Positions 9,935 through 49,276 of a stretch of DNA of 64,000 nucleotides are shown piece by piece. The position numbers and the translations under genes were made by a program. Each line of letters begins with the position of its first letter. The first letter of the stretch is position 1. The notes under the pieces were generated by a model. That model did no database searches. It was not told the origin of the DNA and saw only the letters and a list, made by a program, of their open reading frames with translations. The DNA lies in contig CAMTYL010000003.1 in NCBI GenBank assembly GCA_947085985.1, positions 15,826 to 79,825 of the forward strand, given 5' to 3'. This DNA is from an uncultured bacterium (GTDB lineage Bacteria > Patescibacteriota > Minisyncoccia > Phycocordibacterales > Phycocordibacteraceae).

Positions 9935-10036
9935 GTGGCGTACGCGAATTTTTAGGCTTTGCGCAGAACGTCGGTTCGAGCAAGAAGAAAATTTTCAGCA
10001 GAAAATTATTCTGTACTAAAAATTCGCGTACGCCAC
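9935..10036. repeat. 20-bp perfect inverted repeat (gtggcgtacgcgaattttta ... taaaaattcgcgtacgccac) flanking a 62-nt spacer that contains its own short IR. A third gtggcgta copy sits at the nusB promoter (10089)
   Basis: Direct reading. It lies in the 327-bp rpmF-nusB intergenic region. Confidence 0.5.
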
Positions 10037-10120
10037 AACGAACGACCCTTTATACACAGTGAAAAGTACTAGCACCTTTATGCGTGCGTGGCGTATACTT
10101 CCAAGTAAGCTCTTTCATAT

Positions 10121-11020
10121 ATGGCAAATCGGCACCTAGCCCGCTCCGTAGTTCTACAAACTCTTTTTGAGTGGGACACTACGCACGCAACAGACGACGC
10201 AACAACAGAAATGTTGAAGCGTAACGTTGAAGAATTTGGCGGCGGCGACACCGACATTCCATTTATGGAACAACTCCTCCAGGGTGTGCTCGCAAAGCGA
10301 CCCGACCTAGATTTAGTAATTGAAAAGGCAGCGCCGGATTGGCCACTTGATCGCATTGCACCCGTAGACCGAAACATTTTGCGCATTGGCTTGTACGAGC
10401 TTTTGTTTGCCGACCGCACACAGGTGCCGGCAAAAGTTGCTATCAACGAAGCAATTGAACTGGCCAAGGTATTTGGCGGAGACTCTTCCGGACGATTTAT
10501 AAACGGCGTACTTGGCGCCGTGTACAAGGAGCTTGGTGAGCCAGGTAAGGACGAAGTAGGGAAGAAGGAACGCGTACGTCGCGAAGACTTGCCGCTTGAA
10601 CAGCTTGGCGGAGCCATTGTCTATGCTGAGCACCATGGTCAGTACTACCTTGCACTCGTGCACGACGTGTTTGGACACTGGACGCTTTCCAAAGGAAAAA
10701 TTCCTGAGGGCATGAGTGTAGAGGACGGTACCGTGGAGGGGATTAAAGACGAGCTTGGCCTTCCGGTAAAAATTAAAGACAAGATTGGAGAGAACGAATA
10801 CATCGCGTCGCACCCAGAGAAGGGAAAGACCCGAAAGCACGTCACCTACTTCCTTGCGGAGTCTCCGTACGAGGAAATTACGCTTGAAAAGAAGGGTGGG
10901 TTAGACGATGCGCGCTGGTTCCGTTTGACCGACATCTTGGACCTAAACTTCTACGACGACATGCTGCCGATTGTGACCGCGGCCGTACAGAAGCTGCTTG
11001 ATAAGTCGTCACGCCGCTAG
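10121..11020 (+). CDS. nusB: NusB antitermination factor fused to a C-terminal Nudix-like domain
   Basis: NusB fold in aa 1-140 (RHLARSVVLQTLFEWD...). aa 170-290 carry a degenerate Nudix box GKIPEGMSVEDGTVEGIKDELGL. Confidence 0.8.
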   Translation: MANRHLARSVVLQTLFEWDTTHATDDATTEMLKRNVEEFGGGDTDIPFMEQLLQGVLAKRPDLDLVIEKAAPDWPLDRIAPVDRNILRIGLYELLFADRTQVPAKVAINEAIELAKVFGGDSSGRFINGVLGAVYKELGEPGKDEVGKKERVRREDLPLEQLGGAIVYAEHHGQYYLALVHDVFGHWTLSKGKIPEGMSVEDGTVEGIKDELGLPVKIKDKIGENEYIASHPEKGKTRKHVTYFLAESPYEEITLEKKGGLDDARWFRLTDILDLNFYDDMLPIVTAAVQKLLDKSSRR

Positions 11021-11063
11021 AGAGAAGCCGTCCGAAGGGACGGTTTCCTATTTCACAAGAATC

Positions 11064-11078
11064 TGGTATAATATACAT
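11064..11078 (+). promoter_or_regulatory. extended -10 element TGGTATAAT ending 6 nt before the rnc ATG, implying a leaderless promoter
   Basis: TGnTATAAT consensus. No SD and no room for a leader. Confidence 0.45.
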
Positions 11079-11768
11079 ATGACGCAGGTAGGAGAACACG
11101 CGGCCAAGCTTGGCCTTTCGTTTACTAACGCAGCGCTTCTTGAAGAAGCGCTGACGCACCGTTCCTACCTAAACGAGAACAAGACCGCAGGCAATCACAA
11201 TGAGCGCCTAGAATTCCTCGGAGACGCGGTGCTTGAACTTGCTACCACCAACTTCCTTTTTCATAAGTTTCCGAGCAAGCCCGAGGGCGACCTTACGGCA
11301 TTCCGTGCAGCACTGGTGAACACCTATTCACTTGCTGACACCGCAGAGGAGCTTGGCATGAACAACATGCTCCTTCTGTCTAAGGGAGAAGCAAAGGACA
11401 CGGGCCGCGCGCGCCAGATTATCCTTGCAAACGCATTTGAAGCACTCCTTGGTGCGCTCTACCTAGACCAGGGCTTTGATACGGTTGAAGCATTCCTTGC
11501 AAAGAATCTCTATCCAAAGATTGACGACATCATCGCAAAGCGCGCCTACCAGGACGCAAAAAGTAATTTCCAAGAGCTTGCACAGGAGAAGCGCAGCGTC
11601 ACTCCTACCTACAAGACGCTTGCAGAAACAGGGCCCGACCACGATCGCGTGTTTACGGTGGGAGTATTTTTGAATACCGAGGAAATTGCGCGTGGAGACG
11701 GCAAAAGCAAGCAAGAGGCTGAACAGGCCGCAGCACAGGCAGCTATAGACAAAACGAGCTGGAAGTAA
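11079..11768 (+). CDS. rnc: ribonuclease III
   Basis: ERLEFLGDAVLEL signature and a C-terminal dsRBD. Start placed at the ATG at 11079 rather than the overlapping upstream ORF start. Confidence 0.9.
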   Translation: MTQVGEHAAKLGLSFTNAALLEEALTHRSYLNENKTAGNHNERLEFLGDAVLELATTNFLFHKFPSKPEGDLTAFRAALVNTYSLADTAEELGMNNMLLLSKGEAKDTGRARQIILANAFEALLGALYLDQGFDTVEAFLAKNLYPKIDDIIAKRAYQDAKSNFQELAQEKRSVTPTYKTLAETGPDHDRVFTVGVFLNTEEIARGDGKSKQEAEQAAAQAAIDKTSWK

Positions 11769-32465: not shown

Positions 32466-33074
32466 ATGGACGAAATCGTATACATATTAATAAATGAAGC
32501 GATGCCGGGTTATGTAAAAATAGGTCTGACAAGTGGCTCGCTCGAGGAAAGAATTCGCTCGCTTGATACAACAGGTGTGCCACTTCCTTTTGAATGTTTC
32601 TATGCCGCAAGGGTAAATGATTGTCGGATGGTAGAAAAACTTCTGCACGATACTTTCCTTGATTATCGTGTTCGATCAAATCGCGAGTTCTTTGAAGTTT
32701 CCCCTGAGCGCGTAGTTTCTGCTATAAAGCTTGCCGAAGTTGAGAATGTAACACCGCAACGAGACTTTGTTGAATCAGAAGAAGATCAGAAGGCACTCAA
32801 TCAGGCACGCGAAAAGAGATCTGCTTTTAACTTCGGCATGGTGGATATACCGGTCGGGTCTGAGATTGTTTTTGTGAACGATGAGAATATTCGCGCGAAA
32901 GTCGTTAAATTGAGTGGCAAACGAAGTATCGAATTCAATGGGGAACTAACTAGTCCTTCAACGGCTGCGCAGAAGGTACTTGGCTACCCATACAATGTAC
33001 AGGGAACAGTATATTGGATGTATCAAGGGGAAACATTGGATGAACGTCGTCGCAGGTTGGAAAATCAAGAATAG
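32466..33074 (+). CDS. GIY-YIG/T5orf172 nuclease-family protein with a C-terminal DUF4357-like domain
   Basis: IVYILINEAMPGYVKIGLTS...LEERIRSL...REFFEV (T5orf172 core) and a C-terminal ...TSPSTAAQKVLGYPYNVQGTVYWMYQGETL. TATAAT lies 6 nt upstream of the ATG. AT-richer than the backbone. Confidence 0.75.
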   Translation: MDEIVYILINEAMPGYVKIGLTSGSLEERIRSLDTTGVPLPFECFYAARVNDCRMVEKLLHDTFLDYRVRSNREFFEVSPERVVSAIKLAEVENVTPQRDFVESEEDQKALNQAREKRSAFNFGMVDIPVGSEIVFVNDENIRAKVVKLSGKRSIEFNGELTSPSTAAQKVLGYPYNVQGTVYWMYQGETLDERRRRLENQE

Positions 33075-33984
33075 TTTTGTGGCAGTCGAAAATCTTACAG
33101 GGCTCGAAAAGCCATTACAGAAATTAGTTGAAACCGTCTCCGAAGGAGTTGGGGTTGTTGGGAATCACCTCTTTAAATTTGATGTTGCAAAAATTAAACG
33201 AATTGGAGAAGCAGAAGCAGAGATCGAAAAGGGCAAGATTATTGCACAAGCTGAAGCTCAAGAGAAAGCGGTAGAAATTTTAAGTAGGGCAGAAATAAGA
33301 TTTGCACTAGAGCAATACAACAAACAGATTAATTTAGAGAATATACTAGTTAAATCTAGAGAAGATTTGTCGGAGAAAGAGGTTACTGATGAGGCGGTAG
33401 ATAAGGATTGGACGATGCGATTCTTGGACATTGCCCAGAATGTGAGTCGAGACGAAATGCAGGATGTTCTTGCAAAGATTCTATCTGGAGAGATCCAAAA
33501 ACCAGGTAGTTATTCTTATCAGACTCTAGAGGTCGTTAAATATCTGTCACAGAGAGACTTGGAAAGGTTTTTAAAGTTCGTAGCTCTTTCTACGGAAGTA
33601 GGTGTAATAAAATTACACGGAGGAAGTAGCGAATCGCTTCAAAAATATGGACTGAATTTTGGTGATTACTTAGACTTGTCTTCAATCGGTCTATTTAATC
33701 AATCTTCAATGCTTTCTTATAACATTGAGATGAAACCGGAAGGAAAACATCCAATTAATATCGGCGGAGAATGGTTCATTCTTCAGAACGAAGATAAGGA
33801 GAACAGTAAAAAATTTAATCTTGGACTTTTTGTATTTTCAAATGTAGGTAGGGAAATACGTTCTCTCTTACTCGAGCGAGCGGAAAATGAACATGCGGGA
33901 ATATATAAAACTGATTTTATAGAGGAAACTGAAAAGAAATCCATTAAAGTTACCAAGGCTATATTCAAGACTAAAGAAGTATAG
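33040..33984 (+). CDS. DUF2806-like protein, hypothetical, overlapping the 3' end of the GIY-YIG gene
   Basis: The segment DKDWTMRFLDIAQNVSRDEMQDVLAKILSGEIQKPGSYSYQTLEVVKYL resembles the DUF2806 core (recalled from memory, not searched). Start at ATG 33040 is uncertain and could be 32980. Confidence 0.6.
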   Translation: MNVVAGWKIKNSFVAVENLTGLEKPLQKLVETVSEGVGVVGNHLFKFDVAKIKRIGEAEAEIEKGKIIAQAEAQEKAVEILSRAEIRFALEQYNKQINLENILVKSREDLSEKEVTDEAVDKDWTMRFLDIAQNVSRDEMQDVLAKILSGEIQKPGSYSYQTLEVVKYLSQRDLERFLKFVALSTEVGVIKLHGGSSESLQKYGLNFGDYLDLSSIGLFNQSSMLSYNIEMKPEGKHPINIGGEWFILQNEDKENSKKFNLGLFVFSNVGREIRSLLLERAENEHAGIYKTDFIEETEKKSIKVTKAIFKTKEV

Positions 33985-34185
33985 AAATATGCCGCAGGAG
34001 AGGCGTAGTTAAGTGGGCTCAAAGTAGGAGCCTTTATGCGCCAATATACCCCGCCCGCCGTACACTTACGTCTCCTTCGGCGGACTTCCCGCGCCCAGCG
34101 TCTAGGGCCTTTTTACTTCGCTTGCAGACAGGATCATTTAGGGTTCGCGCCTTCAATTCTGCACACTTGGTATATAATTTAGAAA

Positions 34186-34787
34186 ATGGACAAGAAAGAA
34201 ATTACAAGTCTGCTTGAAAGGCATAAGGCAAAGCGTCCTCGAACTATTGTCGTAGTGGATTTTGGCAACGTAGATAAGTGGAAAGAAAGTCTTGGGTGGA
34301 AGGTCGGTATCCAGGAACTGGCTCAGCTCATCAAGCACTTTTCCTACGGCAAAAGTTTTTACGCAGATTTTATTATGGCGAGGATTACGGGCCAGATGAA
34401 CGCTCCATAAAGCGAACGGTATGGTCGGAAAACATCCTGACCCGTGCACGCATGAATGGATTTGAACTAGTTACAAAAAGAGTCAAATATATCCATAATC
34501 AAGATTACATAACAGGATTTTTAGCCAAGTGTGAACTTGACGTTGAAATGGCCGTTGACCTGATACGAGAAAAGGATAACTACGATTCTGTTTTGCTGCT
34601 CTCAGGTGATGGAGATCTAGTGCCGGTGTTGCAGTATTTAAAACGGTTTCATTCTAAGGAATGTATAGTTATGAGTGCTCGAGGTCACGTGGCTCGTGAA
34701 GTTATAGACGCTAGAGTCTCTGGTATTATCGACGAACTCCTCTTTGCAGAAGACTTTGAATACCGACTCCGAATGCGCGTTTACTAG
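34186..34787 (+). pseudogene. NYN/LabA-like (DUF88) nuclease-domain gene disrupted by a -1 frameshift in an aaaa/ttttt homopolymer near 34380
   Basis: Frame 1 encodes IVVVDFGNVD...KHFSYGKS. Frame 3 continues FLRRFYYGEDYG...LLLSGDGDLVPVLQ. Spliced together they give a canonical NYN domain. Confidence 0.5.
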
Positions 34788-34954
34788 CGCAATCAGAAAC
34801 CCCGCCTTTCAGCGGGGTTTCGATCAAAATCCGGCAAGCCGTTGCTTACATCTGTATTATACAGAGTTTCGATGAATTTTCAATGATATCCACAGAGAAG
34901 CAATTTGACTGCCCTTGATACCTGAATTGACCCGTATGGGCTATTATTAAAGAT

Positions 34955-36865
34955 ATGAAAAAAGCCGGAGGAGGAGAGAAAATCGATGGTTTATCGGCTG
35001 ATGTTCAAGCTGAGCGTTTAGAAGCTTTGCGGCAGGTAGTTCCAGAGGCCTTTTCGGAAGGGCAATTGGACGTGGACAAACTTAAAGCTCTCTTCTCTGA
35101 GGAGGTGCAAGCAGGAGACGAAGAGGGTGAACGTTTTCGTCTTGAATGGGCAGGGAAGCACAAGGTTTTTGATGAAATCGCCAAGAGAACTTCTTGCACA
35201 CTTACTCTTGACCCAGATCGTTCATCTGAAGATTTTGAACAATCGCAAAACGTATTTATTGAAGGTGAAAACTTAGAAGTATTGCGCGCGCTCCAGAAGG
35301 CATATTTCGGGAAGGTGAAGATGATTTACATTGATCCTCCATACAATACGGGAAAGGATTTTGTGTACAACGACGACTTCCGTCAAACAGAAGCTGAGTA
35401 TTGCGAGGATACTTGTAATGTGGACGAGAATGGAAACTTGAAGCGCGCGTACAAACTGAACACTAAGGACTCAGGTCGCTATCATTCAAACTGGCTTTCG
35501 ATGATGTACCCACGTCTGTACCTTGCACGCAACCTTCTCCGTGATGATGGAGTCATTTTCGTTTCCATTGACGATAACGAAGTTCACAACTTGCGCGCAC
35601 TCATGAATGAAGTTTTTGGTGAGGAAAACTTCATCGAGATTTTTTCTTGGCAGAAGACAGAAACCCCACCAAATCTTTCAAAATTAACAAAAAAAAGTGT
35701 CGAATACGTGCTTGCATACAGGAAATCGTACAAACGCAGTACTTTAATGGGACTGAGTAAGAATAGTTCGAGTAGTAATGGTCTAATGAACCAAACTAAT
35801 TCAGAAAAGATACTTACTTTTCCTAAGGATGTCACAGAAACTGCAATAAGTGACGGGATGCTTCCAAAAGGAAGGTACGGAACAGATAGTTATACTATTG
35901 AGTTAATGGAGGACGCAGAAGTCAAAAATGGGAGGTTTGTAACGTCAGTCATTCTTAAGGGGAAGTTTAAATGGTCTCAGGCAAATCTTGAGAGAGAAAT
36001 TTTAGACGGTACGAAGATCTCAATTCGAACTACCTCACTTTCGCCATCATACGAGCGTGAAGAATATGCACCTGAAGCGCCGTGGAATTTAATCGACAGG
36101 GATTTCGGTGTCGGTACTAATGAGGCTGCAAGTGATGAGCTGGATAGTCTTTTTGGTAAGATAGAAATTTTTGACCACCCAAAACCACCTTCATTAATTC
36201 AATACCTCCTTAACTTTCTCAGGGATACTAAAGACGAGGAAGATCTAGTACTTGATTTCTTTTCAGGTTCGGGAACTACTGCTCACGCAGTAATGGCGCA
36301 AAATGCAGTAGATGGAGGTAATCGTCATTACATCTGCGTACAGATGCCTGAACAGACATCTGAAAAGAGCGAGGCACGGAAGGCAGAATTCGCAAAAATC
36401 TCCGATATTGCTATCGAGCGTATCAAGCGCGCCGCAAACAAGATCCGTAGCGAGAAACCAGATTACTCCGGTGACCTTGGTGTGCGTGTTTACTGTGTGA
36501 CTGATTCGAACTTTCCACAATGGCACGCGCGCTCGTTCGACTCTGACTCTGAGCTGGAGGAATCACTCTTTGCGCACGTGGGCCGTGTGGCTGGAGGAGA
36601 CGAGCGTGCACGCGCTACGGAAGTGCTACTGAAGATTGGTCACGACCTAAATACTTCCATTGAGCAGTCTGATGGGTTTTTGCTCGCTGATAGTTCTATT
36701 GCACTTATCCTTCGAGACGATTTTAAAGCGCAGGATTTGAATAAGGTATTCCAAACAAAGCCAAGGATAGTGATAGTACTCGAGCGCATATTTGCTAACG
36801 ACGATGAAAAGATAAACTTCGCACTTCGATGTAAAGAAGAAAAAGTAGTCTTTCAGACCGTGTAA
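34955..36865 (+). CDS. mod: Type III restriction-modification N6-adenine DNA methyltransferase (Mod)
   Basis: The DPPYNTG motif comes before FFSGSGTTAH, which is the beta-class order. 636 aa with a central variable TRD. Confidence 0.85.
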   Translation: MKKAGGGEKIDGLSADVQAERLEALRQVVPEAFSEGQLDVDKLKALFSEEVQAGDEEGERFRLEWAGKHKVFDEIAKRTSCTLTLDPDRSSEDFEQSQNVFIEGENLEVLRALQKAYFGKVKMIYIDPPYNTGKDFVYNDDFRQTEAEYCEDTCNVDENGNLKRAYKLNTKDSGRYHSNWLSMMYPRLYLARNLLRDDGVIFVSIDDNEVHNLRALMNEVFGEENFIEIFSWQKTETPPNLSKLTKKSVEYVLAYRKSYKRSTLMGLSKNSSSSNGLMNQTNSEKILTFPKDVTETAISDGMLPKGRYGTDSYTIELMEDAEVKNGRFVTSVILKGKFKWSQANLEREILDGTKISIRTTSLSPSYEREEYAPEAPWNLIDRDFGVGTNEAASDELDSLFGKIEIFDHPKPPSLIQYLLNFLRDTKDEEDLVLDFFSGSGTTAHAVMAQNAVDGGNRHYICVQMPEQTSEKSEARKAEFAKISDIAIERIKRAANKIRSEKPDYSGDLGVRVYCVTDSNFPQWHARSFDSDSELEESLFAHVGRVAGGDERARATEVLLKIGHDLNTSIEQSDGFLLADSSIALILRDDFKAQDLNKVFQTKPRIVIVLERIFANDDEKINFALRCKEEKVVFQTV

Positions 36866-36866
36866 C

Positions 36867-39524
36867 ATGAAGCTTAAATTCGATGCAGAACAGCAATTTC
36901 AGCTTGATGCAATCGAGTCTGTAGCGGATTTGTTTGTGGGGCAGCAGACCACGTCTGGCGCAGGACTCTTTGGAGAGTCAACACTTGGCATGTTTCAGAA
37001 CGAGCGTGGAATAGGTAATCTGCTCCAGATAGACGAGGGGGCGCTACTCGAGAATTTGAGGAGCGTGCAGGAAAAGAATAAACTCCCAATACAGTCGGAG
37101 CTTGCTGGAAAGCATTTCTCCATAGAAATGGAAACAGGTACAGGTAAGACGTATGTGTACTTGCGTACTATATTTGAACTCCACCAGCGTTTCGGATTTT
37201 CAAAATTTATCATTGTAGTACCAGGCAAGGCTATTCGTGAGGGTGTTTTAAACTCTCTCGAAATCACTAAGGAGCATTTGCGCAACCTGTACGGGAACCC
37301 GCCTTATAGTTTCTTTGCATATAACAGTAAGCGCCCAGCCGACTTGCGAGCATTTGCTACCTCAAATGCGCTTAGTGTGATGCTCATAAATATTGAAGCA
37401 TTTAATACCGAGGACAACATCATAAATCGTGCGAACGACTCGATAGGAGGAGTCCCAATTGAGCTTGTCCAGAAGACGCATCCAATAGTAATTATGGACG
37501 AGCCGCAAAATATGGAATCTCCAGCTGCACAGGCTGCTATTGCAGCACTTAACCCACTTTGTACCCTTCGATACTCTGCTACCCATCGAAATCTCTATAA
37601 TCAAATCTATCGACTTGGGCCTGTGGAGGCATATGATCAGGGTTTGGTAAAAAGAATTGAGGTGGCATCTGTAGCCGAAGAAGGAAGTCAGAACGACGCG
37701 TACATAAAGATACTAGATGTAAAGGCTGGAAAGAGATCAATCGTTGCTAATCTCGAGATAGAATCCAACCACAAGGGTGAGATCAAGAAAACCAAAGTTC
37801 GTTGTTCAACGTCGGGTACAGAATCTGATTTGTATGCATTGTCAGGAAACCTACCCGCTTACGATGGCTACACGCTTAGTCGCATCGATGCAGAATTGGG
37901 CGAGGTGGAGTTTGGTAATGGTGTTGTTGTGTCGAGGAATGCTGCTGTGGGGGAGATGAAGGATGAGATCATGAAGCAGCAAGTAGCGGAGACCGTACGA
38001 GAGCACTTCGAAAAAATGCTCAAGTTTGTAAGGTCTGGGCAGGACATAAAAGTGCTATCGCTCTTTTTCATAGATCGAGTGGCAAATTATCGTAACCATG
38101 AGACAGGTGCGCCAGGGAAGCTCGCCCTGTGGTTTGAAGAGGTGTACGAGGAGTTTAGGCAGTTACCGCGCTACAGTTCGCTCGTACTTCCACCGGTAAG
38201 CTCAGTTCACGACGGCTATTTCTCCAAAGACAAGAAGGGAACACTCAAGGACACGAAAGGAAGTACGGAAGAGGACCGCTCTACATACGAACGCATCATG
38301 AAAGACAAAGAGCGTCTTCTTTCTTCTGATGAACCGCTGCAGTTCATTTTCTCTCACTCTGCGCTGAAAGAGGGCTGGGACAACCCAAACGTCTTTCAAA
38401 TATGTACACTGAACGAAGCAGAATCATATGTAAAGAAGCGTCAGGAAATTGGGCGTGGCTTGCGTCTGCCAGTTAACCAGCAGGGAGATAGGATATTTGA
38501 TCGATCCATAAACACTCTCACAGTCATTGCGAACGAGAGCTATGAAACCTTTGCCCGCTCGCTTCAGCAAGAAATTGAGGAAGAAACTGGACAAGTTTTC
38601 GGAAGAGAGAGAATTGTTGATAAGCGCAAGCGAAAGCAAGTCTCACTTAGAAAGCATTGGGAATTGGATGAACACTTTATCGAGTTGTGGTCGCGAATTA
38701 ATAAGCGAACTAGATATGCGGTTACGCTGGATATGGATTTGTTTCTTGCAAAAGCAACTGAAGCCCTGTCCCATATACCTTCTCAAGAGCCACGTATACG
38801 AGTTGACGTTGCTTCGCTTAATTTTGACCAGAGCAAGGGAATCTTGACCACAAAGAGATCAGAACGAACTGGAAGAAGTTTCGGACAGTCCTTGCCCGTT
38901 CCAGATGTGCTGAGCTATATCTCGCAGCACACAGAACTGCGTACAGCAACAGTGGTCCGTCTACTGAAGGACTCAGATATTTTCGGCAAACTTCGTTCAA
39001 ACCCTCAGTACGTTATGGATCAAGCAGTAGCGGAAATAAAGCGCGTGATGCAATTCATGATTATTGACGGAATTAAGTACGAGCGAATTGCGGATTCTGA
39101 GTACGAGATGCAGATTTTCAAGGACGCAGAAATAGAGTCGTATCTTACTAATATGAGGAAAGTGGAAGTGGTCGAGAAGACTATTTATGACTTTGTGGTC
39201 TGCGATTCTAATGTCGAGATGAGTTTTGCAGAAGAGCTTGAGGCGCGAGACGAGATTGAGTTCTATATGAAGCTACCGTCAAAATTCAAGATAGAAACAC
39301 CGCTAGGCTCTTATAATCCCGACTGGGCTATCATCTTCCGTGGTGATTCCAAGCTGTACTTGGTAGCTGAGACCAAGGGAACAGATCGTGCCGACGAGCT
39401 TTCGATTTCTGAGCAATTGAAGATTAGAGCGAGCGAAAAGCACTTTACTGCAATTGGCGAAGCAATCTACCTGGCTCCTGTGCGCGACATGAGCGGTTTA
39501 TCAGAAAGGTTGAAATCGTTATGA
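36867..39524 (+). CDS. res: Type III restriction endonuclease (Res) with SF2 helicase and PD-(D/E)xK nuclease domains
   Basis: Walker A METGTGKT, motif II VIMDEPQN, and C-terminal YNPDW...VAETKG. Confidence 0.85.
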   Translation: MKLKFDAEQQFQLDAIESVADLFVGQQTTSGAGLFGESTLGMFQNERGIGNLLQIDEGALLENLRSVQEKNKLPIQSELAGKHFSIEMETGTGKTYVYLRTIFELHQRFGFSKFIIVVPGKAIREGVLNSLEITKEHLRNLYGNPPYSFFAYNSKRPADLRAFATSNALSVMLINIEAFNTEDNIINRANDSIGGVPIELVQKTHPIVIMDEPQNMESPAAQAAIAALNPLCTLRYSATHRNLYNQIYRLGPVEAYDQGLVKRIEVASVAEEGSQNDAYIKILDVKAGKRSIVANLEIESNHKGEIKKTKVRCSTSGTESDLYALSGNLPAYDGYTLSRIDAELGEVEFGNGVVVSRNAAVGEMKDEIMKQQVAETVREHFEKMLKFVRSGQDIKVLSLFFIDRVANYRNHETGAPGKLALWFEEVYEEFRQLPRYSSLVLPPVSSVHDGYFSKDKKGTLKDTKGSTEEDRSTYERIMKDKERLLSSDEPLQFIFSHSALKEGWDNPNVFQICTLNEAESYVKKRQEIGRGLRLPVNQQGDRIFDRSINTLTVIANESYETFARSLQQEIEEETGQVFGRERIVDKRKRKQVSLRKHWELDEHFIELWSRINKRTRYAVTLDMDLFLAKATEALSHIPSQEPRIRVDVASLNFDQSKGILTTKRSERTGRSFGQSLPVPDVLSYISQHTELRTATVVRLLKDSDIFGKLRSNPQYVMDQAVAEIKRVMQFMIIDGIKYERIADSEYEMQIFKDAEIESYLTNMRKVEVVEKTIYDFVVCDSNVEMSFAEELEARDEIEFYMKLPSKFKIETPLGSYNPDWAIIFRGDSKLYLVAETKGTDRADELSISEQLKIRASEKHFTAIGEAIYLAPVRDMSGLSERLKSL

Positions 39525-40363
39525 AAACTCAGTGGACGGGGATAGGGAAGGAGGGAGTGGTGCGGTACGTGGGGTGGGGGGTTGTTGGGGTTGTGGTGGT
39601 GCTTGTGGGTGTTTCGGCTTGGTGGATCTTGAGCCAGGACGAGGAGAGCTTTGCTGGCTGCAACGTGGTGGGGATTAACGTGCATGGATGCATCATGACG
39701 TACGCGCCTGCGGCGGACGAAGGCGCTTCTGGAGTACCTGAGGGATGCGACGCTATAGCGGTATCCGAGGAAATCATTGGGACCCTTGAACAGGCAAGCC
39801 AGCACAGCAACATCCGCGCTGTGCTTCTTGATATTGATTCTACGGGCGGGCAGGCGCAGGCTGCGGTTGAGATTGAAGACGCGCTTACTATGGCCGGGCT
39901 TCCAAGCGTTGCGTGGATTCGTGGGTACGGAGATTCTGCTGCGTACTGGGTAGCGAGTGCCGCGAGCACCATCATTGCTTCCGAGGAGTCTGACATTGGC
40001 AGTATTGGGGTGACCTCTTCCTACACCGACTACTCACGCCAGAACGCGCAGGACGGAATCACGTACAACAGTATCTCCACCGGCAAATACAAAGATATGG
40101 GCAATCCTGACAAGCCACTCACCGCCGAGGAGCGAGCTGCGCTTGAGAAAAGCAATCGCATAACACTCGATAACTTTATCGAAACCGTTGCGACCAACCG
40201 CGACTTGCCGATAGAGAAAGTGGAAGCGCTTGCTGACGGCTCGACCTGGCTTGGTAAAGAAGCGCTCTCGCTCGGACTTATTGATGCGCTCGGAACGTAT
40301 CCAACCGTGCTCGAGCATCTACGAGAAGTCCTCCAGGACGAACCAGTGATCTGCTGGCGATAA
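39521..40363 (+). CDS. sppA: signal peptide peptidase SppA (S49, 36K type)
   Basis: N-terminal TM helix and S49 ClpP-fold motifs (YGDSAAYWVASAAS). Confidence 0.75.
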   Translation: MKTQWTGIGKEGVVRYVGWGVVGVVVVLVGVSAWWILSQDEESFAGCNVVGINVHGCIMTYAPAADEGASGVPEGCDAIAVSEEIIGTLEQASQHSNIRAVLLDIDSTGGQAQAAVEIEDALTMAGLPSVAWIRGYGDSAAYWVASAASTIIASEESDIGSIGVTSSYTDYSRQNAQDGITYNSISTGKYKDMGNPDKPLTAEERAALEKSNRITLDNFIETVATNRDLPIEKVEALADGSTWLGKEALSLGLIDALGTYPTVLEHLREVLQDEPVICWR

Positions 40364-41821: not shown

Positions 41822-42427
41822 CTACTGGGCCAGAATATTGGTGACGAGCCTGCCCAGCTCTTCAGCGATGCGCTCGTCCGTGTCCCACATGAAGGGCAGG
41901 ATGAACTCGCGCGTCTCCTCGGCCTTCGCCTTCTGACGATCGATGGGCCAGCCCTCGCCCATGGAACGCATATTGCAGATGCGATCCACGCCCTTGGTCA
42001 CCTTCACCTCGAGCGGTCCTCGGGCGATGGCGCCATAGTATTCGGGTTTGGTCTTCACGTTGTAGTCCAGAAGCCTGCCGTTGGCCGGATCGAAGATCGG
42101 GATCTGCTTGGACAGCAAGCAGAGTTCGTCGAAGGTCTCCTGTCCGAGCAGTCGCACGATGACCTCCCGGAGGGCGTAGGTGTCCTCCACAACATCGTGG
42201 GTGAGACCCAGGACGACGGCCTTGCGGCTGTTGTAGCCGTAGTCTAGAAGAAGCCAGGCGACCTCGCGCGGGTGCTCGAAGTAGCGTTCGCCGCTGTCGC
42301 GCGGCGCTTGGACGCGGTGGCCTTCCTTGGCGAGCCAGTAGGCGACCTGGATGTCGGGGAGACTGTCCCTCAGGCCGCACTTCTGAACCCGTTCAAAGAA
42401 CGAAGTCCGGTTAATGACTTGGGTCAT
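41822..42427 (-). CDS. small alarmone hydrolase, a RelA/SpoT-type HD-domain protein
   Basis: HPREVAWLLL...VVLGLTHDVVEDT and KGVDRICNMRSM match SpoT hydrolase motifs. AAGGGGG lies 8 nt upstream of the ATG at 42427. Confidence 0.7.
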   Translation of the reverse strand: MTQVINRTSFFERVQKCGLRDSLPDIQVAYWLAKEGHRVQAPRDSGERYFEHPREVAWLLLDYGYNSRKAVVLGLTHDVVEDTYALREVIVRLLGQETFDELCLLSKQIPIFDPANGRLLDYNVKTKPEYYGAIARGPLEVKVTKGVDRICNMRSMGEGWPIDRQKAKAEETREFILPFMWDTDERIAEELGRLVTNILAQ

Positions 42428-42613
42428 GTGAATGTCCCCCTTTCTGTACGCACTTAAACACAAATAGATAAACGAGTCAAACCGAGAGAGTTGAAAAATG
42501 TTCTGGCGATACAGGAGTGATAGAAAGGCGAGAGCCGGGCTGGAGAATTGCCAAGGCGTCGCCTTGGCATGATGTGGAATACGAGGAGATACGGTCTTGT
42601 ATACTAAATCTGT

Positions 42614-43588
42614 ATGGCAAAGAAGAGCGTTCCAAAAAAGACCCTGAACCAGGTACTTATATATCAGGCAAAGAACGGAGCTATTGAGCTACGTGGTGAT
42701 TCTGCGCATGACACTCTTTGGGCTACCCAGGCGCAAATTGCTGAACTCTTCAATATTGAGCGTTCGGTGGCCACGAAGCATATCGGTTCCATTCTGAAGA
42801 CCCGGGAGGTAGATGAGAAAAGCAATGTGCAAAAAATGCACATTGCAAATTCTGATAAACCTGTTGCAGTTTATTCGCTCGATGTGATCCTCTCTGTAGG
42901 TTATCGATCAAACTCCGCTCGAGCTATAGATTTTAGGCGATGGGCTAGCAGAACACTTCGTGAATACCTCGTGAAGGGCTACACCATAAACCGCAAGCAG
43001 ATTGCGAAGAATCGGGAAGCTTTCCTTAAGGACGTCGAGTCTGTCCAGGCGCTTCTTCCCGAGCACATTGCGCTTGATCCGAAGGCAATACTTGAGCTTG
43101 TGAAGGTGTTCTCTAGTACCTGGATGTCACTCGATGCCTACGACAAGGATGCACTCGTTCCCGTTGGAACTTCCAAGAAGGCAATCAAGCTCAGTAGTAC
43201 TGAGTTGAACGCAGCGATAGGTAATCTACGCACCGAACTTCTAAAGAAAGGTGAGGCCACAGAGATATTCGCTCAAGAGCGTGCCACAGGCAATATTGAA
43301 GGAATAGTAGGAAACGTCATGCAGTCGCTTGGCGGGGCTCCGGTGTATCCAACTATTGAGGAGAAGGCTGCGCACCTGCTGTACTTCATGGTGAAGAACC
43401 ATCCGTTTGTGGACGGCAATAAGCGCTCGGGAGCATTCGCCTTTATCTGGTTTCTGCGAAAGACGGGAAGCAGGTCTGTAAAGAATATCAATCCAGCAGC
43501 ACTCACTGCACTCACGCTACTGATAGCCGAAAGCAAGTCAGAGAAAAAAGAGCAAATGACCGCACTCGTTACGCAGGTTCTGAGATAG
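42614..43588 (+). CDS. RhuM-like N-terminal domain fused to a Doc-type Fic domain
   Basis: The N-terminus (LIYQAKNGAIELRGDSAHDTLWATQAQIAELF) resembles RhuM. The C-terminal HPFVDGNKRSGA is the Doc variant (GNKR) of the Fic HxFx(D/E)GNGR motif. Confidence 0.8.
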   Translation: MAKKSVPKKTLNQVLIYQAKNGAIELRGDSAHDTLWATQAQIAELFNIERSVATKHIGSILKTREVDEKSNVQKMHIANSDKPVAVYSLDVILSVGYRSNSARAIDFRRWASRTLREYLVKGYTINRKQIAKNREAFLKDVESVQALLPEHIALDPKAILELVKVFSSTWMSLDAYDKDALVPVGTSKKAIKLSSTELNAAIGNLRTELLKKGEATEIFAQERATGNIEGIVGNVMQSLGGAPVYPTIEEKAAHLLYFMVKNHPFVDGNKRSGAFAFIWFLRKTGSRSVKNINPAALTALTLLIAESKSEKKEQMTALVTQVLR

Positions 43589-43661
43589 CGCACAGAGCAA
43601 TATGCCGAAAAACCGCCAGCGCTGCCTAGGGCGACTTTGCAGGACTCCTTTCAAAACCCGT

Positions 43662-43700
43662 TATATAAAAGAAAGTGGCGGCCCGGGGAGGCCGCCACTG
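43662..43700. terminator. hairpin agtggcggcc-cgggga-ggccgccact with a T-rich flank on the minus strand
   Basis: 10-bp perfect stem between convergent genes. Confidence 0.5.
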
Positions 43701-43725
43701 CATTCGTTTGTAGAGCCGACTGGCT

Positions 43726-44013
43726 CTACTCCTTTACGCCCCTCAGGATGTCGAGGCCGATTTCGAGCTTGTGGACGACGTATCCACGTTTGTTCTTGTC
43801 GCCTTCGAGGTTGTGAGCGACCGACCGCATGATGTTCTCGAGCGCGTAGCGATCGGGAGCGGCGGCGCCTGAAGAGGGCAGTGCGAGCGTCATCTGAAGC
43901 GCGTGCGCCATAGCCGCGAGCCGCAGGCGGAGCTCTTCCGGAGGTCCGTCCTCGAGTTCGCGAACATAGCGATCACGACGATCAAGAAAAGCGCGCGTAG
44001 CGAATACCGACAT
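43726..44013 (-). CDS. hypothetical protein (95 aa)
   Basis: ORF with a terminator downstream. GC-rich. No recognisable motif. Confidence 0.4.
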   Translation of the reverse strand: MSVFATRAFLDRRDRYVRELEDGPPEELRLRLAAMAHALQMTLALPSSGAAAPDRYALENIMRSVAHNLEGDKNKRGYVVHKLEIGLDILRGVKE

Positions 44014-44070
44014 CTCTGTCTCCTTGTTGGAACTGGTTCACAAACACAATAACACTTATCTATACAAAAG

Positions 44071-44526
44071 TCAAGTAGTGATCTCCTCGAAATGCTCAGA
44101 AGCGACTGGAGTAATAGAAAGACGAGAGCCGGGCTGGAGAATGACCATGCTTTTCAGTTTTGGATTTGCGCGAATGTCGGTGAGGGTGACGGGCTCCTTC
44201 AACTTCTTAACAAAAGCGATATCTACCAAATACCAGACCGGTTTCTCTTTTGTGGCGCGAGGCTCGTAGTAGTCGGAGGTTGCATCAAATTGAGTTGGGT
44301 CAGGGTAGGGAGCTGAAGCGACTTTGGCGATGCCGTATACGCCCGGTACTTTGCAGCTGGAGTGGTAGAAAAGCACCTGGTCGCCAACCCGCATTTCGTC
44401 GCGCATGTAGTTGCGGGCCAAGAAATTGCGCACGCCAGTCCAGGCGGTTTTCTTGTCCGCCTTGAAATGGTCTATCCCGTATGTCTCGGGCTCCGACTTC
44501 ATAAGCCAGTACTTTTTCTCTTTCAT
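44071..44526 (-). CDS. EVE (PUA-like) domain protein
   Basis: YWLMKSEP...VRNFLARNYMRDEMRVGDQVLFYHS is the typical EVE/DUF55 core. Confidence 0.8.
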   Translation of the reverse strand: MKEKKYWLMKSEPETYGIDHFKADKKTAWTGVRNFLARNYMRDEMRVGDQVLFYHSSCKVPGVYGIAKVASAPYPDPTQFDATSDYYEPRATKEKPVWYLVDIAFVKKLKEPVTLTDIRANPKLKSMVILQPGSRLSITPVASEHFEEITT

Positions 44527-45950: not shown

Positions 45951-46418
45951 TCAACGAGCTTCACGTTTTCTTCTTGAGATAATTATTAGTCCAATAATAG
46001 AAAACAGAATCCCCAGCACAGTACTGGCGCTTCCTTTTGTTAATTCTAGAAATGGAAGATACGAGTTACTATTTTTTGGCGCATAAACAATAACTAGAAT
46101 CGATAGAGGAATCCACCACCTTGCAAAGCGCATCAGAGTCTTGAAACCCCTTTCTCCTGCAAATAAAAGACCAATTCCAAGAGGAATGGAATATAGCGAG
46201 AAGAGTAAGATTGGGTTCAGCAGAGAAATAGAATACGGGGAAAGGGGCTCATAGAACTCACAGGACCGGTCTATCCCGCAAAGCCCTAATGTCCACGTAA
46301 CTGCTTGTAACCCAAGCAAGAGCACAAGCGTCCAGGAATACTTTAGTGTGAATTTCATAGCATCAGTGAGCGAATAGGAAGCTACCAATTCGTATAATGA
46401 AATGATACACCCCAGCAA
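45951..46418 (-). CDS. AT-rich membrane protein, hypothetical
   Basis: Multiple hydrophobic helices. Overlaps the 3' end of the lipase gene by ~56 nt. Confidence 0.4.
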   Translation of the reverse strand: MLGCIISLYELVASYSLTDAMKFTLKYSWTLVLLLGLQAVTWTLGLCGIDRSCEFYEPLSPYSISLLNPILLFSLYSIPLGIGLLFAGERGFKTLMRFARWWIPLSILVIVYAPKNSNSYLPFLELTKGSASTVLGILFSIIGLIIISRRKREAR

Positions 46419-49233
46419 GCAAAGAAATAAAGATATACTTTACTTCGTAAAAAGTTAAGAGCGGAGAGGCGAGCTGAGACTTGTTTCCTTTCTGATTTTC
46501 ATCTGTGGCTCGAGTAGCCACAACAGGTGCCCCTTGAGTTGCTTCTGCTGTCTGAGCAATCTTCTTGGTTAGTTGCGGTGCACTTAGTATGCCGGGTAAG
46601 CCAAGTAGGGGTACAGCATTAACACCAATGGTCTCAGTAATAGGAGGTGGAAGCGTCCTGCTTCTGCTACTTCCTCCTGAGCTTGTGGCTACCGTAACAG
46701 CCTTGACGGGCGTTTGATAAAAACTAATAGAATTCTGCGAGACTGGCAGTACAAAATCAGCGGCCCCGTTTCCATCCGAATCCACGGAAAGGCTCGAGGC
46801 GGTTGCGAGAGATTCACCGATAGTGATTCTAGCAATGGTGCCCGCTTGTGTTGGGACGCCAGCAAGAGTGGTGCTGGCTACGATTGACCCACCAAAAACT
46901 TCCTGAATATCGAGCGAGAATGTTCCGGTAGAAACGCCGTTCATTTCTACCCTGTATTCTGGCCCAGCAGGAACGATCACGTACTGCACCTCCCCAAACT
47001 GCCCGTACACAGAGCCGGGAATGGTTTGCTCAGAACCTCCACTCGCTGTTGGTCCTGTATGGTTTCCTGAAGTGTCATACAGATTCAGAGTGAGGGGTGA
47101 GTGGAGCATGAACCGCAAAAGTTTATTTGGAGTACTGCTCGTGGGTTGCTCAGTGTATACATTCTTGGGTACGTTAGAATCCCCGCCGAGTATGGCTTCA
47201 AGAAGATCTTGCAATTCTTTTACAGCAAGGATGCTTCCGTGGTCCTTATTAATCGGGCCAAATTCATAAGGAATTAAGTCCAACCAGTATTTCCGTACAT
47301 TTTCAGTGGAAGTGCTAATCATGAGGGCACTTGCAATTGGAACCACCCCATCACCATCCTGAACAAACGTGGGACGGTACTCTTTCTTGCATACTGAAAG
47401 AATGCATAGTTCATAGAATTCAATCCCAGAGACCGTGTCTAAACCCCACCCTCCCACTTGGTACAGCGTAACTCCTGCAGGAGGTACCCACGCATCAAGA
47501 GAGTCATGCGTTCTTTTTGCGTACGTAAGCAAAAGGTCGTTCAGAACATTTGGTTTAAAAAACAACACAGCTTCAGGCTTAACGCGCCCATTGTCTTCAG
47601 CGAGTGAAAACGCACGAAGCTCGTCCCATGTGTCTATTACATTGCCGTACTTAGCACGCTCCTCCGCATATGTGCTCGCTGCAGTAAATCGGACAACAGC
47701 GCGTTCCTGGTCAAGAAGGTCATCGAAGTATCGCTGCGAGGGTAGTAGGTGGTATCCCATGGGGGAGTTCTCGGCGAACATGCGAGCAGTCGAAACATGA
47801 ACAACAAATGGGAACCAGGAGGGGAGCGACTCTTTGTACCCAAATAGGAGTGCTCCCAATGCCTGAGGCGCGCCGCTCTGCGGAACGCCGACAAATATCA
47901 CCTTATCAATGAGTCTGGCAGTTTCCGCATCTCCAAGCTTCATTAGTAGCTTCTTTGCTACGAGTCCGCCGTTGCTGTGTGCAATTATAGTGACCTTATG
48001 TGTTGGCGAGCTTGACGCAAGTTCGAGCAAATTCAGTTCAAGGTAGGGAACATTCGCCGTTTCCTCAAAGTAAATGTTTCCCTCTCGCACTGCTCCTTTG
48101 TTGACGATATCGTCGAGTGAGAGACGCCAGTCATATGATGCAATACGCCATTCTTTTATCATCTCGGTAGACTGAAGCTCGTTCATTGAGCGTATAAAGG
48201 AACCATAGATTTCAGAGAAACCGGCGATCCTTTCTATGATGTCTCCTGACTTTGTGTGTATGCCAGGATTGGCACTCACTCCTGCAGAAGTAAGAAAGAG
48301 TTTCTCCACATCTTGGTCACTTCCAGGCTCCCATACTTTATTACCGACGGCGTCGTACAACCGGCTGCCTTTGATACCGGGGAGGAAGAGGACGTTGGAG
48401 ACTTGCGGCGTAGTGGTCGCAACACCGGGGGTTGTTGTTGCGGTGGTGGTAGCAAACCCGCCCGAGCAACCATCAACGCCACAAAGCTGGAATGCGAATC
48501 CGCCAGGAAGTGGATTTTCGTACGTACCTGTGAGCGACGTGCCAGGGTTGTTGCTTGAGCCCGCGACACTCATGTAGTTTGCGCCTAGGAATACCGCACC
48601 AAGGGCCGTTCCGGGTGGAATACCTTCGCCGTAGAAAACGAAGTCGCAATACTCACCAACGGTGCGCGTTGCGTACGGATTCGTATCGAAACTTGAAGCG
48701 AAGTCAGGTGTAAAAACAGAAAGGCCATATGTTCCGCCCCAACTAAGATTGCTACATGTTGTGTCAGCTCCTGCACGCTTTACTCGAGCAACGGTAGTGG
48801 TGCCAGTGGTAGTCCAGAATCCCTCAGGCGAAACGGTTGGCGGGTTACCAATCTCTGTGTAGCCACCTGGAAAGTATGCATAGTTTCCAGGTGGGTAATA
48901 GACACCAATGCCCCAAACTTCGTCCGCGAGCGAATTATCAAACAGCACGCCCGTAGGAAGTAGTGCTGGCTCATCTGAACTTAAACGTACTACTGGCTCC
49001 TCTGGAGTGCTGGTAGCGACGGTTTCTGCGGGAAGGAGAGCCTCTGACGAGCTACTCGCCAGAGGCTCGTCTGCTGGAGCTGGTTCCTCGGGCGTCGTAG
49101 TCTCTTCGTTAATACCTTCAAGTGCTGCGATAGCGTTCTCGTAAGCGTACGAGTAGGGGATAGAAAGGGGCGCGTAAAAGACGCCCGCGATAAGGAGGGT
49201 GGAAGTAAGTGCCCTCAGCACCTTCGTCCCCAT
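46363..49233 (-). CDS. secreted LCAT/PGAP1-like alpha/beta-hydrolase (lipase/acyltransferase), ~957 aa with Thr-rich linkers and extra C-terminal domains
   Basis: Signal peptide MGTKVLRALTSTLLIAGVFYAPLSIPYSYA. ASYDWRLS (LCAT family YDWR motif). Nucleophile elbow IIAHSNGG. TGGTATCCT lies 8 nt upstream of the ATG at 49233. Confidence 0.7.
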   Translation of the reverse strand: MGTKVLRALTSTLLIAGVFYAPLSIPYSYAYENAIAALEGINEETTTPEEPAPADEPLASSSSEALLPAETVATSTPEEPVVRLSSDEPALLPTGVLFDNSLADEVWGIGVYYPPGNYAYFPGGYTEIGNPPTVSPEGFWTTTGTTTVARVKRAGADTTCSNLSWGGTYGLSVFTPDFASSFDTNPYATRTVGEYCDFVFYGEGIPPGTALGAVFLGANYMSVAGSSNNPGTSLTGTYENPLPGGFAFQLCGVDGCSGGFATTTATTTPGVATTTPQVSNVLFLPGIKGSRLYDAVGNKVWEPGSDQDVEKLFLTSAGVSANPGIHTKSGDIIERIAGFSEIYGSFIRSMNELQSTEMIKEWRIASYDWRLSLDDIVNKGAVREGNIYFEETANVPYLELNLLELASSSPTHKVTIIAHSNGGLVAKKLLMKLGDAETARLIDKVIFVGVPQSGAPQALGALLFGYKESLPSWFPFVVHVSTARMFAENSPMGYHLLPSQRYFDDLLDQERAVVRFTAASTYAEERAKYGNVIDTWDELRAFSLAEDNGRVKPEAVLFFKPNVLNDLLLTYAKRTHDSLDAWVPPAGVTLYQVGGWGLDTVSGIEFYELCILSVCKKEYRPTFVQDGDGVVPIASALMISTSTENVRKYWLDLIPYEFGPINKDHGSILAVKELQDLLEAILGGDSNVPKNVYTEQPTSSTPNKLLRFMLHSPLTLNLYDTSGNHTGPTASGGSEQTIPGSVYGQFGEVQYVIVPAGPEYRVEMNGVSTGTFSLDIQEVFGGSIVASTTLAGVPTQAGTIARITIGESLATASSLSVDSDGNGAADFVLPVSQNSISFYQTPVKAVTVATSSGGSSRSRTLPPPITETIGVNAVPLLGLPGILSAPQLTKKIAQTAEATQGAPVVATRATDENQKGNKSQLASPLLTFYEVKYIFISLLAGVYHFIIRIGSFLFAH

Positions 49234-49276
49234 ATGCCCGCAGGATACCACACAATTCTGTGGCTATAATGCTAGT

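Follow-up and report, generated by a model that had tools for sequence, protein, structure and literature searches.

NusB is among the most conserved of bacterial transcription factors and is almost always one small domain; with ribosomal protein S10 it occupies BoxA RNA and nucleates the complex for rRNA antitermination and folding. The gene at positions 10121–11020 on the forward strand of the stretch analysed here, 64,000 nucleotides of a patescibacterial contig that we call the window, departs from this plan in having a second domain after the first. The question that it raises is where this domain comes from, how widely it accompanies NusB, and whether it acts there as an enzyme. An initial annotation, made by reading the DNA, described the gene as an unusual fusion of NusB with a degenerate Nudix-like domain, with a possible link between rRNA antitermination and alarmone status.

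The gene is a single open reading frame with an ATG start, 299 codons plus a stop, and no internal stops; compared with the 130–150 residues or so of canonical NusB, the doubled length given in the initial annotation is correct. Both halves are recognised by Pfam. The N-terminal domain, residues 1–138 (positions 10121–10534), corresponds to the segment 1–140 originally assigned to NusB. PF01029 matches residues 7–136 with E = 1.7e-34, and the nusB equivalog model of NCBIfam, TIGR01951, gives 128.1 bits, well above its cutoff of 88.35. In the AlphaFold2 model seven helices extend over residues 4–138, mostly with pLDDT above 90, giving the all-α fold of NusB. This half matches the solved NusB structures of E. 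coli, Aquifex, Thermotoga and M. tuberculosis, with E-values down to 5e-17, and Foldseek aligns its model with the M. tuberculosis protein (1eyv) at a TMt of 0.85.

The C-terminal domain, residues 159–299 (10595–11017), has the Nudix fold. PF00293 matches residues 166–281 with E = 2.7e-8 and 34.3 bits, where the gathering score is 21.1, and the profile search originally proposed for the C-terminal part, run on its last 149 residues alone, recovers the same domain at 36.6 bits. In the model, residues 159–298 form an α/β/α domain, in agreement with the Nudix-like segment first placed at about 170–290. Between the two domains lies a linker, residues 139–158 (10535–10594), which begins with a GEPGKD motif, conserved in the family as GEPxKD, and continues as a variable tether; this remaining part differs by roughly 10–45 residues over the family, and residues 141–151 are disordered in the model, with pLDDT below 50. 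The full-length model, built from a 53-sequence alignment, has a mean pLDDT of 89.6 and a pTM of 0.62, and the C-domain modelled alone has a pLDDT of 90.3. The combination of this pTM with high confidence within each domain indicates that the mutual orientation of NusB and Nudix is not fixed and suggests a flexible arrangement. A Foldseek search with the full-length model found no solved chain that spans both domains (TMq ≤0.40).

The same architecture recurs throughout a large group of uncultured bacteria. The 120 best protein clusters, at 81–99% identity, are all 296–323 residues long, and all but one are annotated with both Pfam domains; they derive from MAGs of Patescibacteria, Paceibacterota, Parcubacteria and Minisyncoccia, and the name that they are given is "NusB" only, which leaves the Nudix half invisible to users of the databases. 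A scan of GTDB species genomes (one genome per species), using two conserved C-domain peptides from a 13-sequence alignment, showed that at least 588 relatives are encoded there, 588 of the 600 matches listed being confirmed. The best 80 of these, again one genome per species, were analysed as loci; the labels of their MAGs are Kaiserbacteria, Adlerbacteria, Lloydbacteria, Nomurabacteria, Paceibacterota, Parcubacteria and similar. In all 80 the NusB and Nudix parts share one open frame, and the genes are 295–314 codons long. Within about 6 kb of the fusion gene, none of the 80 has another NusB-like ORF. The occurrence of a single frame in independent assemblies from many studies, in every one of these loci and in the 120 clusters listed, refutes the idea that a sequencing or assembly error has joined two adjacent genes, to which we attach a negligible probability; the converse suggestion, that the halves are separate genes separated by an undetected stop or a sequencing error, falls with it.

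The Nudix half itself belongs to a narrow subfamily, as indicated by a search of the C-domain against 1.84 billion representatives clustered at 50% identity, which returned 525 matches at E ≤1e-3. Among the matches listed, 42 combine a length of 270–360 residues with a NusB-like N-terminal match, and every one of these is a fusion or a fragment of a fusion; most of the short matches resemble gene fragments, and the weakest include a few canonical Nudix proteins, about 140 residues long, that stand alone. We conclude that the NusB-Nudix protein is the normal form of NusB, fixed across a large clade of Paceibacteria-type Patescibacteria. The fusion is therefore unusual among bacteria generally, as first thought, but not within this clade.

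The surroundings of the gene are also conserved. The order is mostly L32, nusB-Nudix, rnc, smc, and the window shows the same arrangement: L32 is upstream in 71 of 74 loci, rnc follows directly in 66 of the 78 with enough sequence, and dnaE (on the minus strand), rnhB and smc usually surround the locus. In the window rnc, encoding RNase III, occupies 11079–11768 on the forward strand and is identified by the Pfam domains Ribonucleas_3_3 and dsrm. No tRNAs were found in the window, nor any second Nudix gene that could make up for the lost activity, whether by a family HMM or by a relaxed regular expression for the box.

Immediately before the start codon, ending 1 nt from it, is a BoxA-like element, GCTCTTTCATA, at positions 10109–10119 on the forward strand. 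It agrees at 10 of 11 positions with GYTCTTTAANA, a published consensus (PMC5725501). Of the 80 loci, 48 have the pattern G[CTA]TCTTT, followed after 2–7 nt by ATG, at the start of nusB; the remaining 1.6 Mb, counting both strands, yields 60 matches. Autoregulation by Nus factors has been described for suhB, nusE and nusB (PMC5725501), and the position of the motif fits such a mechanism; as a possible autoregulation site at its own gene, it also indirectly favours a NusB half that functions in BoxA binding. Slightly further upstream, TATACT at 10094–10099 (forward strand) is a likely −10 hexamer, judged from its position, since most related loci have a −10-like hexamer that ends 17–23 nt ahead of the start codon; a generic promoter scan did not call it. 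If correctly assigned, it would imply a 5′ UTR of roughly 14 nt, most of it the BoxA-like element.

The spacer between L32 and nusB contains a long hairpin at 9935–10036 on the forward strand, with a perfect 21-bp stem, a 60-nt interior and a z-score of −6.0. One related locus (L002) has it too, with a stem of different sequence, through compensatory changes, and a conserved centre; another (L001) lacks it. Neither the window nor the leader of nusB gave an Rfam match, this hairpin included, and the hairpin may or may not form part of the nusB unit.

The branch of the Nudix superfamily to which the C-terminal half belongs is indicated by comparison with PDB sequences. A family profile of 46 C-domains finds the Aquifex Ap4A hydrolase (3i7u) first, at E = 2.8e-21, then Chlamydia CT771 (1.2e-15) and the Ap6A hydrolase Ndx1 of T. 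thermophilus (5e-14), with the C. elegans and human Ap4A hydrolases at about 1e-12 and Dcp2 after these. In both sequence and structure the Nudix half is nearest to the Ap4A/Ap6A hydrolases Aquifex 3i7u, CT771, Ndx1 and NUDT2. An identity as a MutT-type 8-oxo-dGTPase was considered and rejected, as the single-sequence matches to MTH1 and MutT1 are weak and the family profile ranks the Ap4A/Ap6A hydrolases first. No similarity of the Nudix half to (p)ppGpp-specific Nudix enzymes emerged. The alarmone link envisaged at the outset finds no support, the nearest characterised relatives being hydrolases of diadenosine polyphosphates and not of (p)ppGpp; a looser connection with nucleotide status may exist. 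The small alarmone hydrolase that had been noted at 41822 is indeed present, as a stand-alone RelA/SpoT-type HD domain (ORF 41822–42463, minus strand), but it is 30 kb away on the other strand and has no evident connection with the fusion gene. Net charge was considered as a clue to RNA binding and is uninformative, the predicted pI of the Nudix domain (5.5) resembling that of NUDT2 (5.2); the value for the NusB domain is 4.8.

Several residues of the fused domain align with positions that may line the nucleotide pocket of Ap4A hydrolases. Just before the box, W-T-L-S-K-G in the query resembles the W-T-P-P-K-G of Ap4A hydrolases, giving a common motif W-T-x-[SP]-K-G, in which K191 aligns with K42 in NUDT2 and with K36 in the C. 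elegans enzyme. The aromatic residues Y82 and F128 of NUDT2 have Y227 and Y278 as their counterparts in the alignment, close to where the C. elegans protein has F75/Y76 and Y121. All three residues are at least 95% conserved in the family; in the Ap4A hydrolases we take the two Tyr positions to be the adenine-stacking pair and the Lys position to be a phosphate ligand. One position differs: G260, a near-invariant Gly across the family, is found where the C. elegans and Aquifex Ap4A hydrolases have a Glu, which we take to be catalytic in those enzymes.

A further departure from the enzymes is in the Nudix box, residues 192–214 (10694–10762, forward strand), GKIPEGMSVEDGTVEGIKDELGL. Its degeneracy was established by alignment with relatives that have a canonical box. 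From G192 the box runs through KIPEG to M198, and through SVEDGTV to E206 and G207, followed by Ile, Lys, D210, E211, Leu, Gly and L214. Relative to the signature GX5EX7REUXEEXGU, E7 is replaced by M198, R15 by E206, E16 by G207 and E19 by D210, a loss of four of the five charged signature residues, and the query does not carry the Glu and Arg set of a Nudix hydrolase. What it keeps, in line with the partial retention first reported, is G1, U17, E20 (E211), G22 and U23. G207 aligns with E58 of human NUDT2, whose sequence was checked residue for residue against PDB 3u53, and the catalytic Glu of NUDT2-type enzymes is accordingly missing from the query. The E58A mutant of NUDT2 has been used as an inactive control (PMC8616924), and its structure, 4ijx, appears among the fold matches.

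This degeneracy is lineage-specific. Relatives that are 80–85% identical carry a perfect box, for example GKVEEGENVEEGTIREIKEELGL, and some canonical-box relatives have a 5-residue loop insertion, as in GKVGDSPETAEESVEEGTIREIKEELGL; the description of the domain as degenerate applies to the query, with its four replaced residues, and not to these close relatives. Among 238 distinct fused proteins, which sample the family unevenly, 67 have the canonical signature EREEE, 83 the query type x[ED]GDE, 46 (many of them from Kaiserbacteria-labelled MAGs) the form xR[VI]xE, and 42 some other combination. Fitch parsimony on a neighbour-joining tree, constructed with the box columns left out, gives at least 24 state changes at box position 16 and 20–29 at positions 7, 15 and 19, compared with 5 at E20. 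Conservation follows the same pattern: among 137 domain positions compared in 40 diverse members, E20 ranks 12th and position 16 only 82nd. In the query clade the site of R15, beside G16, is occupied by an acidic residue (E or D) in 97% of sequences, with the result that the box helix keeps three carboxylates, E206, D210 and E211.

Despite its degenerate box, the domain is strongly constrained. Estimates of dN/dS by the Nei-Gojobori method are 0.016 for Nudix and 0.040 for NusB between the query and L001, 0.004 and 0.014 between two RV-type members (L039 and L048), and 0.029 and 0.065 between L025 and L029; the exact ratios are rough, because dS is high in most pairs, and all are far below 1. 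Purifying selection acts on the Nudix domain at least as strongly as on the NusB half, with omega about 0.02. In the close clade the two domains do not differ in their identity to the query, 0.87 for each, and the lowest value, 0.76, is that of the box. Outside the box, W187, T188, K191, Y227, K239, G260, D263, W266 and Y278 are 93–100% conserved in the canonical, query-type and RV-type groups and 71–100% in the mixed fourth group; position 243 is aromatic (Tyr or Phe) in every box group, and D262/D263 and the box Glu E211 are retained in canonical and degenerate lineages alike.

That most catalytic residues are lost while the Nudix domain is strongly conserved suggests that it probably binds rather than cleaves. 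On this evidence the gene product would be the organism's NusB ortholog, in which a flexible linker of about 20 residues tethers a Nudix-fold domain whose origin lies among the diadenosine-polyphosphate (Ap4A/Ap6A) hydrolases. The function for which this domain is selected would need no normal Nudix hydrolysis; it may instead be a binding module, held beside BoxA-bound NusB, whose ligand could be an adenine-nucleotide polyphosphate such as Ap4A or, as a second candidate, the (poly)phosphorylated or capped 5′ end of the nascent BoxA-containing leader RNA. The ligand-bound domain might then modulate the assembly or the output of the Nus complex, with full hydrolytic capacity confined to relatives that have an intact box, which may cleave what they bind. 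NUDT2 and the related RppH are known to act on RNA 5′ ends (PMC8616924). We give an even chance to this reading of the sequence, namely a NusB ortholog with a tethered, probably non-hydrolytic module that binds nucleotides or RNA 5′ ends. Some features of the family pull the other way. The three carboxylates of the box helix could form an alternative metal site, with residual or altered activity, and the perfect box kept by about 28% of sampled members means that hydrolysis may be ancestral and still the main activity, with the query lineage exceptional. The acidic pI of both domains does not favour extensive binding of the RNA backbone.

Another proposal is that the Nudix half is a working enzyme, either an Ap4A/NpnN hydrolase or an RNA 5′-pyrophosphohydrolase or decapping enzyme of the RppH/NUDT2 kind, brought by NusB to BoxA leaders. 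There it might leave pre-rRNA, or the mRNA of its own gene, with a 5′ monophosphate for processing alongside RNase III and 5′-dependent RNases. Its closest solved relatives, active Ap4A/Ap6A hydrolases and then Dcp2, are consistent with this, as are the perfect box in 67 of 238 family members, the nearly invariant E20, the carboxylates E206, D210 and E211 in the query clade, and the conserved position of rnc downstream. Against it, the query lacks E7, R15, E16 and E19 and has G207 at the site where mutation to Ala abolishes NUDT2 activity, while position 16 is poorly constrained in the family (V, I, G, K or A in most lineages), unlike that of an enzyme selected for catalysis, and the near-invariant G260 replaces the Glu of the C. 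elegans and Aquifex hydrolases. Judged from these alignments, a catalytic role of this kind in the query seems unlikely.

A similarly doubtful possibility, suggested by analogy with the SuhB dimer of E. coli, is that the domain serves as a structural protein-protein module, an additional subunit of the rRNA antitermination complex specific to this lineage, that would bridge NusB-S10-BoxA to NusA, NusG, S4 or RNA polymerase, with any ligand irrelevant. The residues that are best conserved do not point to such a role: W187, T188, K191, E211, Y227, Y243 and Y278 align with active-site or pocket positions of the Ap4A hydrolases, and no obviously new surface is seen. It would be more surprising still if the fusion had no bearing on NusB function, the second half being a housekeeping Nudix gene that rides on nusB expression and drifts toward loss in some lineages. 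Gene fusions are often found in reduced genomes, the linker is long, variable and disordered, and the box residues are labile, all of which would suit a passenger; but omega of about 0.004–0.04 in lineages with degenerate boxes argues against decay, the fusion is unbroken in the 80 loci and the 120 listed clusters, and the Nudix subfamily is found almost only fused, among the matches listed. We regard a passenger domain as improbable.

A broader proposal is that a major lineage of Patescibacteria (CPR) has an rRNA antitermination complex in which NusB carries a built-in, Nudix-derived sensor or reader, with sublineages toggling between hydrolysing and binding-only forms. We offer it tentatively and consider it rather unlikely. 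If true, the domain would bind Ap4A-type dinucleoside polyphosphates, or the 5′-triphosphate or Np4-capped ends of BoxA-containing transcripts, and rRNA transcription and maturation, as well as nusB autoregulation, would be coupled to the status of stress nucleotides or of RNA 5′ ends. If an entire reduced-genome lineage has an extra, selected domain on NusB, its machinery for rRNA transcription and maturation differs from the E. coli model. The occurrence of intact and degenerate active sites in proteins that are 80–85% identical makes the family a convenient system for studying the function of Nudix pseudoenzymes, and one suited to asking whether the Nus complex takes input from Ap4A-type nucleotides or from the chemistry of RNA 5′ ends. 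The separate elements, NusB, Nudix pseudoenzymes and sensor domains of Nudix origin, were known before, and databases already contain their combination as a domain architecture; a literature search found no published description of a NusB-Nudix fusion.

Comparison with E. coli NusB, as seen in the NusB-NusE-BoxA complex and in rrnTAC (PDB 3d3b and 6tqn), shows that the first 138 residues of the query have the same fold, in keeping with their score above the equivalog cutoff, and the BoxA-like motif that precedes the gene is placed as in autoregulated Nus genes. Canonical NusB is a single domain, whereas the query adds a Nudix domain of about 140 residues through its flexible linker. The Ap4A hydrolases to which this domain is closest (aq_158, 3i7u; Ndx1, 1vc8; CT771, 4ilq; the C. 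elegans enzyme, 1kt9; NUDT2, 3u53) are stand-alone proteins with an intact GX5EX7REUXEEXGU box; in contrast, the query domain is fused, and positions 7, 15, 16 and 19 of its box are occupied by M, E, G and D.

The closest precedents for the proposed use of a Nudix fold beyond standard catalysis, in fusion with a nucleic-acid-binding domain, are NrtR (3gz5 and 3gz8) and the Bacteroides AraR (5bs6), whose Nudix domains occur among both the structural and the sequence neighbours of the Nudix half. We take the Nudix domains of these regulators to have degenerate boxes and to bind ADP-ribose-type effectors; a complex with ADP-ribose itself is named in the title of a PDB entry. The query is not an NrtR-type protein, however. 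NrtR and AraR are repressors with DNA-binding winged helices and Nudix domains of the ADP-ribose pyrophosphatase type, whereas here the partner is NusB, an RNA-binding antitermination factor, and the Nudix domain is of the Ap4A-hydrolase type. RsmB/Sun provides another natural fusion of a NusB-fold domain with an enzyme domain, and RsmB models match residues 7–139 of the query weakly. In RsmB, however, the NusB-like domain is joined to a SAM methyltransferase and does not serve as the NusB of the cell, whereas the query is recognised by the nusB equivalog model. A possible functional parallel comes from E. coli SuhB, in which an enzyme fold acts with NusB and NusE on BoxA as a subunit of the Nus complex, its inositol-monophosphatase (IMPase) activity being dispensable for that role (PMC4807359). 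SuhB is a separate protein with the inositol-monophosphatase fold, whereas here the domain has the Nudix fold and is fused to NusB itself.

The start of nusB-Nudix, the gene at 10121-11020 (+) that joins NusB to a C-terminal Nudix-fold domain, carries two sequence elements that may bear on its expression. A BoxA-like element, GCTCTTTCATA, occupies positions 10109-10119 (+) and stops 1 nt short of the ATG. Of the 80 related loci (the best 80 of at least 588 relatives), 48 carry this motif, as G[CTA]TCTTT, where nusB begins, compared with 60 occurrences over the remaining 1.6 Mb. The motif may serve in Nus autoregulation. A conserved -10-like hexamer, TATACT (10094-10099, +), precedes the start codon by about 20 nt, a spacing that implies a very short nusB-Nudix leader.

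The spacer between nusB and the upstream L32 ribosomal protein gene contains an inverted repeat (9935-10036) whose 21-bp arms pair perfectly around 60 nt of intervening sequence, for which the predicted RNA fold has an energy of -57 kcal/mol (z = -6). A counterpart is seen in the related locus L002 (152-255), where the 22-bp stem differs in sequence through compensatory changes and the centre is conserved. A second locus, L001, with a protein 99% identical, lacks the inverted repeat. The repeat matched no Rfam family; possible identities are a structured RNA, a substrate for RNase III and a small inserted mobile element.

At the other end of the gene, the sequence 3' of the stop codon, within 11028-11081, can form a GC hairpin, CCGTCCGAAGGGACGG, with a T-rich tail after it. 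An extended -10 element, TGGTATAAT, is found at 11064-11072, just 6 nt 5' of the ATG (11079) of the RNase III gene rnc. Because the element is so close to the start codon, the sequence suggests that rnc may be transcribed from its own promoter as a leaderless mRNA.

Among the relatives, one sublineage, represented by proteins P0014, P0094 and P0112 and loci L004, L005 and L045, among others, has five extra residues in the loop of the Nudix box (GX5E to GX10E); here the box reads GK[VI]GDxPExxxE...REIKEELGL, and the REx2EE helix is still canonical. The same Nudix subfamily also occurs in other architectures: behind a long N-terminal extension and NusB (P0215, 577 aa), joined directly to an N-terminal region that by eye resembles a DnaA domain IV-type helix-turn-helix (P0238, 379 aa), in tandem (P0240), and in a 2019-aa protein with 10 matched stretches (P0264).

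Elsewhere in the window, an apparent defence or mobile island (32466-40363 and 42614-44526) lies among the housekeeping genes dnaG, rpoD, rpoB and rpoC. It encodes T5orf172/MUG113, DUF2806, an NYN nuclease, an S49 peptidase and, as a type III restriction-modification pair, an N6_N4 methylase with a ResIII/endonuclease; genes for a RhuM/Fic protein and for a protein with an EVE domain are close by. Two very large ORFs, of 953 aa (7-2868, +; a sub-threshold DUF6301 match in Pfam) and 962 aa (46363-49251, -; no NCBIfam match), gave no significant family match.

The gene at 41822-42463 (-), unlinked to nusB, encodes a stand-alone RelA/SpoT-type HD hydrolase domain of 213 aa. The initial annotation had named it a small alarmone hydrolase, and the resemblance is borne out by matches to Pfam HD_4 (31 bits), to TIGR00691, limited to positions 1-143, and to Rel/RelA hydrolase domains in the PDB, with E-values down to 5.5e-11.
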